Assembly (NCBI GenBank): GCA_964016885.1
Contig: OZ024742.1
Coordinates: 242,792,001-242,856,000 of the forward strand
Direction of reading: 5' to 3'
DNA: 64,000 bases
Origin: Eledone cirrhosa
Lineage: Eukaryota
In this document: one piece after another, positions 227 to 36,313 of the stretch
Position numbering within the stretch: position 1 is the first letter of the stretch
Layout of the letters: each line of letters begins with the position of its first letter
Translations under genes and position numbers: made by a program
Notes under the pieces: generated by a model
Seen by the model: only the letters and a program-made list of their open reading frames with translations
The model's database searches: none
What the model was told of the DNA's origin: nothing

Positions 227-766
227 ATATATATATATATATATATATATATATATATATATATATATATAGGGCGGGTAAAATTCTCGAGATTGTTTTC
301 AATGGGCTGATAATACCACCTTACCGGCGCCACTCGAATAAGGTAATTATTTAACCCATATATATATATATATATATATATATACATTGAATATTATACT
401 CCAAAAAACTTGTCGAGTGCTTTGAATCAGTTATAAACATTTATATTTGTTGAATTACCAACAAATTGAATATCCCTTTTGCTTATATATATAAATATAT
501 ATGTATATATACATATATATGTATATATATATATATATAAATATATATATATATATATATAAGTATGTATACGTACATACATATATGTATACAGACGTAC
601 AGTAGTATGTATACATATATACATACATGCACACATATATATATGTACGTATGGATTCACCGAACATTTATTATAATGCTCGGTGTGTTTGTAAACAAAC
701 ATCCCGAATTAAGCCGTACAGTGTCTAGCAACCATCGTTGCTCATTTGTTCAACACTGACAAAGGA

Positions 767-809
767 ACGCTGTACTAGTTTCAAGCTTATTAGCTATCGT
801 CAGCAACGT
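767..809 (-). ncRNA. Minimal type I hammerhead ribozyme
   Basis: Minus strand reads acgttg-CTGACGA-tagct aata agctt-GAAA-ctag-TA-cagcgt. Stem I, core, stem II, palindromic stem III (ACTAGT) and a GUA cleavage triplet are all present. Confidence 0.8.
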
Positions 810-1046
810 ATACCTTCCTGCCCTTGTCCAGCAAAAATTGAAAATTAGAATTGGTGCTCTGAAATAGCGATATATATATGAATGTATATATATATAGTGT
901 ATTTTGCAATACACTGTATGCAAAGCACCAATTCTAATTTTCAATTTTTGCTGGACCGGCAACCGCTCTGTATAATCAGTTCCTGATTATTACTGGAATT
1001 CTATAAGAATCCAACATTCATAATTTCCAACAAACAAGGGGAGTGC

Positions 1047-1094
1047 TAAGCTCTGAGGAATACCAACAGTATGAAACTGAGATCTGTCAGCTTA
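1047..1094 (+). ncRNA. Type I hammerhead ribozyme with long extended stem I
   Basis: taagct-CTGAGGA-atac caaca gtat-GAAAC-tgagatct-GTC-agctta. Stem I extends through caacaaacaaggggag / ctccctttgtttgttg (about 1024-1114). Confidence 0.85.
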
Positions 1095-1328
1095 TCTCCC
1101 TTTGTTTGTTGAAAAAAGAAGTAAGTGACATCGTCACTACTTTAAAACAATAGTGTAAGGTCTTCAAAATGGTGTTAATTAAGCATACAGTGTATTGCAA
1201 AATACACTATATATACATTCATATATATATCGCTATTTCAGAGCACCAATTCTAATATATATATATATATATATATATATATATATATAAGGACCCTAGA
1301 GCAAATATTTATAAAATAACGGATTAAC

Positions 1329-1377
1329 GTTTAAGCAAAGAATCGCTGCTTTCACCCTTAACGGGATCTTCTGAAAC
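1329..1377 (-). ncRNA. Hammerhead-like motif with U4A core variant
   Basis: Minus strand reads gttt-CAGAAGA-tccc gttaa gggt-GAAA-gca...tgc-TT-aaac. A homologous copy with the same CAGAAGA lies at about 36165-36210. Confidence 0.5.
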
Positions 1378-32448: not shown

Positions 32449-33046
32449 CTAGCAGTGGTACTCGGCGTTGCACGGGATAAGGTATTGTGAAATATATAAC
32501 CGCCCTAGCTAAGCTTAGTATTGCCACAACCACGACTGGCAAAGAAGTAAGGGTCTGGTGGTACGTAAGTAAGCAACACTGTGGCTTAAAACGTGAGGAA
32601 GAAGTTGTGTGCACTGACCAACTGTTTGGGGAATGAGTGTGAGATTTGTCTTGAGCAAGGGTGGCAGAATAACCGGATGCAGCAGACAGCCAGACATACA
32701 TACAGATATTATAAGGGCGCGTTCTGGACGCAGAGCGAATTGTAGGAAGTGACGTAATGCAGACAGCCAAACATACAGACAGATATTATAAGGGCGCGAC
32801 GTTATATGTATGTATCTATCTAAAAAGAGAAAGACTAAGAATTATAGAGAGAGATCGCTAAATCGCCTAATGCGGTCCCTAGGGCATTGAAAATTTGAAA
32901 TTCTTTGGGCTCAGAACACTCCCTGAAACATAAGTATGTATTACATGTGTAAAGTTTGAAAACAGTCGGTTGGGTGGTTCTCTAGTTTTAGGGATTCAAA
33001 CTCACACACACACACAGACAGACATCCTCAATTTTATATATATAGA
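32449..33046 (-). mobile_element. Non-autonomous Helitron-like element
   Basis: Minus strand starts TCtatatatataaaattgaggatgtctgtc and ends cccgtgcaacgccgagtaccactgCTAG|t. Confidence 0.75.
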
Positions 33047-34510
33047 CAAGGCCAGCAATTACCCAGTACATTACTGGTACTTTATTTTATCGACCCCGTG
33101 AGGATGAAAGGCAAAGTTAACATCGGCGGTATTTGAACTCAGACCGTAAAGGGACGTAACTCCATGCTATGAAGCATGGTGTCCGACTCTCTACAGATTC
33201 TGCCAATCCACCGCCCTAATGTCTGTCCGTAATGAGGGAGTGAGAGGGGAGAGAAAGAAAGGCCGAGGTGAAGTGACGAAGTGACTCTCTCCTCCTCCTC
33301 CTCCTCCTCCTCCATCTCCCCATTCGTCACAGCGATAGAGAGGAGGAATGTTAGTGTGTTACAAAGAGAAAGAGTGAGAGTGAGAGAAACAGACAGACTA
33401 AAAGAGAGGGATAGCTGGAGAGAGAGAGAGATAGCAACCACGCGCGCACGTGTTTCCAATGTCGGACAGACAAACAGATAAATTGTTGGTTATATATTAT
33501 AAGGAGATGATCTTATTATTCCTGAGAGAGTTGTAAGGGCGCCGTATTGACATACGGCGTTTCTTAGATATTTTTTAACCTGGCCGAGCCTACCCCCCTA
33601 CCCCCCTCTCCAGGTCTTAATACAGCAGATGTCTTCCAGAAAAGGATAAAGAGTGAGAGAATAGAATTAAGAAATGGATATAGAGGAAGAATCGAATTGT
33701 ACTTTTTTATCGATCTCGAAAGGCAAAGTTCGAATGATACTTTTTTATCGAATTGTACTTTTTTTGTCGATCTATTAAGGCAAAGTTCGAATGGTTCTTT
33801 TTTTATCGATCTTGAAAGGCAGAATTCACCTACGTGGGATTTGAACTTAAGAGTAGAGAGCAGAAACGAAAGCCGCAAATGATTCTATCCGACGTTCCAA
33901 CGACTCTGCCAATTCACCGCCTCGAAACGACTTTATTTACCTAGGGTTAAATCAGAATTTGATTTCTCTGGATTGTGTAAAAGAAATAATAGTCATACAC
34001 TTGATTAAAGTAGCTATACTCCTCTCCAATAAATTTCTGGATTTATAACAAATTATGTTACTTTTGTATGTGTAGTATGTCTATTATTAGATATTACTAT
34101 AATTCTCGTTCTGAAATGTATCATATGTTATTGCAGCAATAACTTTTCATTATACTTTTAGAAATACAGTATCAATAAATTACCATTTTATTGAAATCAC
34201 AACAAAATTGCTAAAGTGTTGAAGAATAAATTCAAATGGTCTTTACTTTCTGTTATATATATATATATATATATATATATATATATATATATATATATAT
34301 ATATATATATATATAAAGAGAGAGAGAGAGAGAGAGAGAGAGAGGGGGGGAGAGAGGGGGGGGAGGGGGAGGGAGAGGGAGAGAGGGGGAGAGAGAGAGA
34401 TTATAATATAATATATATATATATTTGTAGTAAGGTTGCTTGGATGCGTCCATAGGCGGTATGCCGGTTGAGCACTCTATGCTCCTTCAGACTTGCTTCG
34501 AAGACGCTAG

Positions 34511-34607
34511 ACGTATCTGAGGAACTTGAGAGCGAATCCAGAGTCACGTTCCACCCACAAAGAGATCGTACCTCTAGCTGTTCGCCTTAGAAACAATTGT
34601 AATACGT
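34511..34607 (+). ncRNA. Hammerhead ribozyme with long stem II insertion
   Basis: acgtat-CTGAGGA-(long imperfect stem, gcgaa/ttcgc)-GAAAC-aatt-GTA-atacgt. The stem II closure is imperfect. Confidence 0.6.
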
Positions 34608-35438
34608 TAATAAATTGTGTTTAGATGCATCACTGATTCTTCGTTTCCATATTATATATATATATATTTATATATATATATATAGAGAGAGAGAGAGAGA
34701 GGGGGGGGGGGAGGGAGAGAGAGAGAGAGAGAGAGAGAGAGAGAGAGAGAGAGAGAGAGAAGGTGAAGTTGGAAATAGCACGGAAAACATATTTTAGGGT
34801 CTGTTTTTATTTTTTTTTTTTTCTTATTTCTTTGATTCGTCAAAGTGGTGGATTGGCAGTATCGGTAGAGGGTCGGACGCCATGCTTTGAAGCATAGAGT
34901 TGCGGCCCTTGACATTCTGAGTTCAAATCCTGCCGAGGTTAACTTTACCTTTCATCCTTACGGGGTCGATAAAATAAAGTACCAGTAATAAAGTACCAGT
35001 AATGCATGGGATAATTGCTGGCCTTGTGCCAAAAATTGAAACAATTATTGAAAAGATGACATTATTGAAAAAATGAGAGGGACAGTCCTTTTTTTTTTTA
35101 AATGTTATAATGTATATAATGTATATAATGTATATAAAGTATTACCAGTTTCGATGTATTATTAAAATCCATCTTATCAAATGTTGAGTATTACAATTAA
35201 AAAGAATTAATAGGAATTAAAAACTAAAAATTAAAGATTTAAAATTAAATGTTGGAGTAAGTTTTTTCCCATCTTCCTTGCTCAGAAGTGAACATAAGCT
35301 TGGTAGATATACCAAAGTTTGGAGCTCCCAGTTGATAGATTATAATCTAAATGATTAATTATATTTATATATATATAAATAAATAAATAAATATATATAT
35401 ATATATATATATATATATATATATATATATATATATAT

Positions 35439-36313
35439 ATCTGTCCCCACGTCACCAACACCACCACCTTCCAGGGTCCCAACGGCCACTCTCTCTCTGT
35501 CCGGCACGCCTTCCGGTGCACCTCCTCCAACCTAGTCTATGGACTTCGCTGCACGGAGTGTAGCGCAACCTACGTCGGACTGACTGGACGTCGCCTGGCG
35601 GACCGTTTTACCGAACAGCTCCGGGATATTCGTCTCGGCGGTAGTTCCCCCATCGCCCACCACTTTGGCGCCCCTGGACATTCCGCGCACCATCTCACAG
35701 TCTGTGGCCTACTCCAATGCCACGGAACACCCGCCACCCTCCTCAGGGTTGAACAACGCACCATCTTCACCCTACAGATCCACATTCCCCCCGGCCTGAA
35801 CTCCCCACCCCTATTCCTTTAGCCTTCGACCGCCCTATTACCCCCCCCCACACACACACACACATATATCCCCCACTAACACCACTAACACACTCCTCCT
35901 TTTCACCCCCACCCCACAACTAACAATACTAACACCCCACCCCACCCCCGACCACCCTCCCCCAACTAACAATACTAACGTCCTTTCCCCCTTCAATTAT
36001 TTTTGACCGTTGGTCAGTCAATGGCAACATTGAGGACCGAGTAAATTAGATTACCGATATAAAAGACACAGAAGCGAGAAGCGAAAACCAACCAAACAGT
36101 GAGTGTGTTCTGTTATTAATTCTGGCAATATTACACAAATATGACCTTAAAATGACAGATTAAAGTTTAAGCAAAGAATCGCTGCTTACACCCTTAACGG
36201 GATCTTCTGAGTCATTTTAATAAATATTTGCTCCACGGTTCTTATATATTTGATATATATTTATCCTTATCGAGCCCTCTTTGGATTTTAGTCTTCAAAT
36301 TTATTATTATTAC
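35439..36313 (+). mobile_element. Second, GC-rich PLE family: 5'-truncated GIY-YIG fragment plus 3' region, in (TA)n
   Basis: Manual translation gives ICPHV..FRCTSSNLVYGLRCTECSATYVGLTGRRLADRFTEQ..IAHHF..RVEQRTIF, then a frameshift and PPGLN to the stop at about 35822. Not in the ORF track. Confidence 0.85.

Follow-up and report, generated by a model that had tools for sequence, protein, structure and literature searches.

What kind of element leaves behind, again and again, a short inverted arm, a spacer and a sense arm with a hammerhead ribozyme, embedded in tandem TA repeats, (TA)n? The question is posed by 64,000 nucleotides of the Eledone cirrhosa genome (GenBank assembly GCA_964016885.1, contig OZ024742.1, positions 242,792,001 to 242,856,000 of the forward strand; hereafter the window), in which a reading of the sequence alone, here called the original prediction, had seen a population of hammerhead-bearing fold-back elements produced by Penelope-like element (PLE) families, or by non-autonomous ribozyme elements mobilised by them, that target (TA)n. 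We find that the islands are very probably front-truncated copies of several PLE families together with short non-coding hammerhead repeats, and we are confident, if a little less so, that the best explanation overall is the insertion of such copies into (TA)n, with arms that likely arise from two-site priming of both strands of the cut target. The predicted mixture is recovered in that three islands link to PLE open reading frames (ORFs), one is a PLE and three are non-coding monomers. The fold-backs are 5'-truncated, 5'-inverted insertion units of PLEs and not palindromes that move whole. The class is a known one; what the window adds is a set of new families, a clean count of the rule that places a short 3' tail on one arm, and retrozyme-like monomers that obey this rule.

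Sequence searches were run against the 3.0-Gb assembly that holds the window, and fold-backs were sought by BLAST of the window against itself after simple repeats had been masked, which recovered all of those named in the original prediction. Arms lie at 826-956, and also at 846-921 and 1183-1254, in family B (826-1256, plus strand); at 5866-6224 and 10028-10386, with 99.4% identity, in family H (5866-10426, plus); at 11153-11295 and 11565-11696 in family D (11037-11697, minus); at 12722-12849 and 12952-13101 in family E (12715-13186, plus); and at 22089-22206 and 22385-22495 in family G (22092-22535, plus). Inverted repeats span 2172-2323 in family C (2092-2325, minus), 15581-15858 in family F (15519-15860, minus), 21698-22017 in family A (21603-22019, minus) and 60285-60449 in family P. 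Across the window, arm-to-arm identity is 72-99%. Some boundaries had to be moved: the islands placed at 2100 and 11090 start at 2092 and 11037, and that at 22089 extends to about 22535. The common architecture with microsatellite flanks stands as far as the inverted arms are concerned, but (TA)n is present at both sides in only 7 of 13 inspected islands (2092, 5866, 11037, 12715, 15519, 17120 and 21603); the island at 34425 likewise has (TA)n at both sides, and those at 826, 22092, 60285, 640 and 53963 have it at one side or neither. Runs of (TA)6+ occupy 5.2% of the window. The islands had also been called unrelated in primary sequence, which is mostly so: in a comparison of ten family references only F and H are alike (123 nt at 76%), but 2102-2219 does have relatives in the window, since it resembles 31942-32048, which 12534-12589 matches in turn. 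These family C relatives, both on the minus strand and found by self-BLAST, are a fragment at 12534-12589 and a tail-bearing arm adjoining (TA)n at 31932-32048.

Every family examined ends at either of two fixed points by a short TA run, and the interval between the two points is the tail, which measures about 25-30 nt in B, 39 in H, 62 in F, 77 in C, about 78 in G, 88 in E, 89 in J, 98 in A and 111 in D. The use of these ends was counted in H at 60 loci chosen by protein match, 59 of which have the 3' end and 47 of these an inverted arm. The tail stands on the long arm alone in 33 copies and on the short arm alone in 13; no copy lacks it altogether, and one has it on both arms (Fisher p=1e-10); in this sole double, locus L315, the arm continues beyond the tail, and it was left out as unresolved. 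A tail on one arm is thus found in 46 of 46 resolved inverted copies, all of which have (TA)-type runs at both ends. Hand counts give the same picture in D (15/15 resolved copies, seven with the long and eight with the short arm tailed), J (10/11), B (8/10) and A (29/29 distinct sites), the figures for A and B being conditional because the queries contained the tail. Furthermore, variants common to other loci tend to occur in both arms of a copy. In the pseudo-long terminal repeat (pLTR) of H, 20 variants were mirrored and one was one-armed, against a rough independent expectation of 7 and 32 (40 loci); the corresponding figures are 66 and 39 (expected 21 and 105) in A, and 32 and 16 (expected 9 and 52) in D. 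One-armed variants in the older families can be understood because mutation after insertion and query bias add them, as shown for C, in which a seemingly arm-specific variant, with a tail arm unlike its partner, was rejected as query bias by exact 35-mer matches genome-wide (142 for the one form, 6166 for the other); a shorter C query returned no matches.

Family H is, judged by its protein, a young PLE of Neptune/Nematis type. The window copy is 5'-truncated and consists of an inverted, tail-less arm (5866-6224) followed by the sense part (6225-10426), with an ORF at 6876-9023 that is interrupted by one stop (7560-7562) and in which Pfam finds RVT_1 and GIY-YIG; the 150 scored matches in the assembly have 98-100% protein identity, many of them within open frames of 784 amino acids. 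It shares with Neptune/Nematis-type PLEs the DKG motif, a Cx4CxxC linker and, at the C-terminus, a GIY-YIG domain with CCHH-type residues, and departs from them in its hammerhead-like motif (10232-10262, of the U3-A8 type), which has a core change in the window and whose GAAA core is changed in 32 of 35 motif regions read, despite the youth of the family. At L318 and L326 the inverted arm of H copies passes from one part of the element to another far away from it, which suggests template switches.

The islands at 21603 (A), 2092 (C) and 12715 (E) are best read as the 3' ends of Hydra-type PLEs. As had been proposed, the families can be extended to a PLE ORF: long copies continue into frames for reverse transcriptase (RT) and GIY-YIG in A (L216, L218), C (L220, RT thumb and GIY-YIG) and E (L221-L224), and 5866-10426 is a PLE itself. 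These frames were identified by eye and by weak tblastn matches to H, itself identified by Pfam; also by eye, the parents have a CxCx5C linker (one Cys of which is changed in the single A copy read), CxxC and CxH around conserved E and N, and no CCHH; their N-terminal regions, where the RWK and DKT motifs of the clade would lie, were not recovered intact. In H, A, C and E alike RT is followed, at the C-terminus, by the GIY-YIG endonuclease (EN) of EN+ PLEs, and an inverted 5' copy is combined with a one-sided tail; partial tandems of the pLTR were seen in H only. The tail-bearing arm is on the minus strand in A and C, and the sense arm of E, tail included, is 12952-13186. The hammerheads of these families are imperfect: A has a fold at 21886-21964 with two changes in its 5' core (a CTGATCA put forward as that core was rejected, as it sits within stem II), the window copy of C keeps only the 3' half and the 5' core of the family is imperfect, and E has a minimal hammerhead with palindromic loop III that is damaged in the window copy. 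Hammerhead cleavage is probably dispensable in families with damaged cores. Points of 5' truncation or turning in C fall in a narrow zone within stem II of the hammerhead, a pattern that is partly query-biased (e.g. L161-L185). A further 5'-truncated PLE 3' end, at 35442-36313 on the plus strand, comprises a GIY-YIG frame (35442-35822; tblastn to H, E-value 1e-7) and the region downstream of it to (TA)n.

Families B, D and J are closed non-coding monomers in partial tandems, and are retrozyme-like. The monomer is about 318 nt in B (unit 921-1255, with inverted 5' pieces), about 530 nt in D (long tail-bearing arm 11037-11566 on the minus strand, short arm 11565-11697) and about 540 nt in J, whose window copy (17120-17584, minus) is smaller than a monomer and has no inversion. 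The monomer junction, at which in B the unit's own 3' end lies directly upstream of the unit, is crossed in 18 of 20 loci of B, 14 of 20 fetched for D (two of these being one site) and 15 of 20 fetched for J (one site counted twice). Most fetched copies hold 1.1-1.5 units, with a full range of 1-2.8, and the longest ATG frames in natural multimers are 36, 65 and 43 amino acids in B, D and J. The hammerheads of B (1053-1088, predicted GUC site, one stem III mismatch in the window copy) and J (17297-17365, predicted GUA site) are canonical type I; their cores are exact in 20/26 and 18/21 motif regions, with 148 exact 32-mer matches for B and 46 exact motif matches for J genome-wide. B and J thereby combine what characterises non-LTR (long terminal repeat) retrozymes, namely a non-coding tandem monomer, copies of more than one unit and a canonical type I hammerhead. 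D is only retrozyme-like, because its atypical motif, with CUGANGA and GAAA boxes, has stem I displaced by 7 nt and the window copy gives no descriptor match. All three monomers obey the one-arm tail rule and so point to PLE mobilisation; that B, D and J are mobilised in trans is, in our judgement, probable.

A mechanism for these insertions has to start from what is observed: in each family two fixed 3' ends beside short TA runs bound the tail, inverted copies divide the two ends between their arms, in either order, and both arms carry the same lineage variants, clearly in H and more weakly in older families. In the in vitro work on Poseidon of Anolis carolinensis (PMC11167929), both strands are nicked and extended, a dimer is predicted, and ribozyme cleavage, which the G8C mutation abolishes, is dispensable for insertion. 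By analogy, the PLE protein, perhaps as the dimer predicted there, would nick and extend both strands from the two sites that bound the tail; the two cDNAs would copy the same RNA, stop independently and be joined head to head by repair. For B, D and J the template would be RNA in circular or tandem form, used in trans, because their copies run through the monomer junction. Poseidon shares the two RT start sites bounding a tail, the AT-rich nicks and the extension of both strands; that paper reports that the strands do not differ in start site and that there is no homology to the target, whereas here each start site borders a short TA run and the two are used in a complementary way. Paired priming of both target ends on one RNA is the version that we marginally favour. 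More tentative, and to our mind somewhat short of an even chance, is the generalisation that a PLE dimer primes both strands at two sites of one RNA in all inverted insertions, and that RNA circles of B, J and perhaps D have gained this two-site signal and are inserted likewise, as parasites of PLEs that keep a hammerhead catalysis lost in several of their autonomous hosts.

Alternatively, one strand might prime itself (snap-back) to make the inverted arm, and the tail would become one-sided at the stage of endonuclease resolution. That the two arms have the same haplotype would follow directly, self-priming has been proposed for rotifer Penelope elements (PMC3846280), the tail has been ascribed to EN-mediated resolution (PMC8557442), and the turn points of C and F crowd into narrow zones close to the hammerhead, some of them lying at small palindromes. 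We nevertheless think this route unlikely, if the most serious competitor of paired priming. The tail belongs to the short arm and is missing from the long one in 13 of 46 H copies and 8 of 15 D copies, which disfavours plain snap-back because a copy of the first cDNA cannot put a tail on the short arm alone, and the arms of H often begin kilobases apart on the element; antisense self-priming (PMC3846280) with trimming of ends may serve as a variant of the scheme. For B, D and J, local amplification is a route considered in bioRxiv 10.64898/2026.07.22.740005, and the monomers could be local tandem duplications of PLE terminal repeats that spread as DNA in the manner of satellites; their copies, however, are dispersed over many contigs, hold only 1-2.8 units with one common junction, terminate at two fixed points next to (TA)n and follow the inversion and tail rule of PLEs, all of which makes such an origin improbable.

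The possibility that the islands are palindromic non-autonomous elements moving whole, akin to miniature inverted-repeat transposable elements (MITEs) or to fold-back ribozyme units, gains some colour from whole-palindrome queries for A and F, each of which returned 40 copies of the same shape (family searches scored the best 40 of 487-3025 first-look candidates each, and are not copy numbers). This uniformity is query bias. A tail-side query for A found fold-backs at 15 of 30 loci, with arms of varied length, and plain truncations or long copies at the others, so that tail-only queries lead to variable arms and to long parents. Even among the copies from whole-palindrome queries the centre varies, and because turn points differ copy by copy the palindrome is not the mobile unit; nor do the islands have the fixed symmetric ends and fixed interior of a MITE or fold-back DNA transposon. 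The idea of the fold-back as a stable element accordingly gives way to one remade at each insertion and missing from about half of the copies picked by their tail, and whole-palindrome movement is very improbable. Least credible of all is that the palindromes are assembly artefacts: problems of assembly with such structures are noted in PMC8557442, but here the arms differ, a tail specific to each family makes them asymmetric, and they are met repeatedly, at many loci of nine families.

Several observations weigh against two-site priming of PLE copies, or temper it. Tails on both arms occur at L141/142, L156, L173, L023, L039 and L271, and B, C, E and J include a few such doubles. Mirroring of variants is weaker in F (42 mirrored, 88 one-armed; expected 14 and 103), J (16 and 28), B (6 and 14) and E (8 and 15), uninformative in C (1 and 4), and in H was counted with nine tandem or complex loci excluded; where it is clear, it fits one RNA, one source locus or later arm-to-arm conversion alike. 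Microhomology at the junctions, a noisy measure, is mostly 0-2 nt and did not separate the models. Sampling was not random, since for each query the 15-30 copies with the best scores were taken. PLE protein fragments lie near 2-3 of 20 loci of B, D and J, and are read as neighbours because their position and family vary. Extended upstream, F and G reach no in-sense ORF; K gives no ORF link, nor do N, O and P, for which no upstream extension was made.

How far do the hammerheads themselves stand up? The union of three descriptor scans of the window contains eight exact-core type I motifs in six islands: those of B and J (the latter on the minus strand, the former on the plus), 773-803 (minus), 15657-15686 (minus), 15754-15783 (plus), 22117-22157 (minus), 22427-22467 (plus) and 54101-54150 (minus). 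One scan gave 4 matches where none of 20 block shuffles gave any, and another 7 where none of 12 shuffles did, so that exact-core motifs do exceed shuffled sequence; one of the 7, at 35048, leans on a poly-T run and was not counted. The descriptors had been adjusted after the families were seen, and per-family structures were read by eye except where a scan is cited. With two core mismatches allowed, 10 matches compare with a shuffle mean of 7.5, which is not above chance, and the motifs at 21886, 10232, 11265, 13016, 34518 and 60350-60420 therefore rest on family context. Where a dozen or so hammerheads had originally been proposed, eight motifs have exact cores and others are degenerate or were misread; of those placed outside fold-backs, 17297-17365 is canonical with an exact core and 34518-34602 is weak and degenerate. 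Hammerheads on both strands, likewise proposed, are real in the pairs 15657/15754 and 22117/22427, but a sense motif and its antisense partner in one transcript should pair rather than cleave. Rfam listed 150 of its 246 matches in the window, and these are simple-repeat miRNA noise with no hammerhead among them; nor did it recognise a hammerhead in the 1053 or the 17297 motif at E<=10. RF00163 does match 18 places in the assembly, in a family that has no copy in the window. This additional family, with loci L407-L421, has a hammerhead above the cut-off of RF00163, and L407 has a fold-back, a tail and (TA)n flanks.

The remaining islands vary in completeness. F is the fold-back 3' end of a longer, H-related element, with minimal hammerheads of U3-A8 type in both arms, their stem I being 3 bp long in the window copy and 3-4 bp in the family; its turn points gather some 35-45 nt upstream of the core, partly through query bias (e.g. 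L232-L261). G is the fold-back 3' end of a longer element with about 1 kb of common upstream sequence, and its two minimal hammerheads have palindromic loop III, the core being exact in 28 of 31 motif regions of the family. K (34425-34649, plus) is a (TA)n-flanked unit of about 220 nt without inversion, whose hammerhead-like motif has palindromic loop III and weak closure of stem II. Palindromic loop III recurs in the minimal type I hammerhead of N (640-826, minus; descriptor scan), to which sequence in the flank of L106 is related by eye, in that of O (53963-54200, minus), which has relatives in the flanks of other loci, and in some members of P (60285-60545, plus), an older 5'-inverted copy that is degenerate in the window. 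At many loci (e.g. L092, L093, L143, L200 and L255) different PLE families adjoin with one (TA)n run in common, and clusters therefore grow by repeated targeting.

The window also holds elements of other kinds. A 750-nt element at 53187-53936, which has inverted arms of 264 nt, ends that are equal and fragments of an IS1595/Merlin-type transposase (Pfam PF12762), recurs elsewhere with the same span and no tie to (TA)n; it is likely a DNA-transposon derivative, and was excluded from the PLE islands on account of its equal ends and transposase-like frames. Also excluded, as a tail-to-tail palindrome in which no hammerhead was detected, was 16796-17053, where another repeat family forms a near-perfect palindrome with TA-ending 3' ends at the join. 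A tandem array at 13418-15455 has units of about 660 nt, 92-99% alike, with (TA)n runs on either side, and another (TA)n-embedded family lies at 1290-1430 and 36148-36313 and forms a fold-back in L368; a single two-mismatch hammerhead descriptor match at 1333-1419 is at chance level. An exon of a VHL-like host gene (PF01847) occupies 58521-59039, and the decayed remains of non-LTR retrotransposons, in which RT, zf-RVT or C2H2 domains are recognised, occupy 23442-26267, 27813-28400 and 61083-62751.

Set beside known systems, the architecture of the islands is that of the published PLE insertion unit (PMC8557442; PMC3846280). In PMC8557442 one already finds 5' copies that are inverted, tails on one side, the targeting of (TA)n, PLEs that are non-autonomous and the Hydra and Naiad families of octopus. 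The original prediction, which knew of no description of such a density and diversity, is overstated to that extent: the families are new, and the architecture and (TA)n-targeting octopus PLEs are not. The canonical EN+ PLE unit (PMC8557442; Pen2a_Av, PMC3846280) shares 5' truncation, partial tandems, an inverted 5'-truncated copy, a single-end tail, microsatellite targets and a hammerhead in the terminal repeat; its tails are 30-40 nt, against 25-111 nt here, and a count of the one-arm rule such as that given here for H (46/46, on either arm) was not found in the available text of the two papers. The parents of A, C and E have the same linker, CxxC and CxH motifs and (TA)n targets as the Hydra clade, including Hydra-1_Obim of Octopus bimaculoides (PMC8557442), a likeness drawn by eye from motifs alone; there are several such families here, with long 3' untranslated regions of 1.2-2.3 kb. 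Minimal PLE hammerheads (PMC4209133) share palindromic loop III, a long stem II, a short stem I, the U3-A8 variant and a high diversity between families within a genome, and A, C and H carry further core changes. Animal non-LTR retrozymes (PMC7229834; bioRxiv 10.64898/2026.07.22.740005) share non-coding monomers, one type I hammerhead and copies of more than one unit; B falls within their range of 170-400 nt, and D and J are longer. The bioRxiv paper asks of a retrozyme two complete hammerheads in consecutive units, a criterion to be read beside the 1.1-1.5 units of most copies fetched here. PLEs have been proposed as their mobilisers in both papers, and the bioRxiv paper argues from phylogeny that retrozymes derive from PLEs; the word "tail" does not occur in its text as available, and word searches of both papers found no discussion of dispersed 1-2.8-mers with PLE-type inversion and tails, as seen here. 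Octopus vulgaris has 31 recently active Penelope-like families in a report whose accessible part does not mention hammerheads (PMC13282606), and a literature search, which left most subscription journals outside its reach, found no publication on octopus PLE hammerheads or PLE twin priming.

The inverted and tandem insertion of PLEs is called unresolved in PMC8557442, and the proposed mobilisation of animal retrozymes by PLEs rests on co-occurrence and sequence kinship (PMC7229834; bioRxiv 10.64898/2026.07.22.740005). Both questions become testable with defined RNAs, given a young PLE in which many ORFs are intact, a tail rule that is strictly kept, and non-coding partners marked in the same way. 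For the annotation of this genome, the insertion unit explains a visible share of its microsatellite-embedded repeats. If two-site priming on a single RNA is true, and circles are inserted likewise, these islands would be direct genomic evidence of animal retrozymes as parasites of PLEs.

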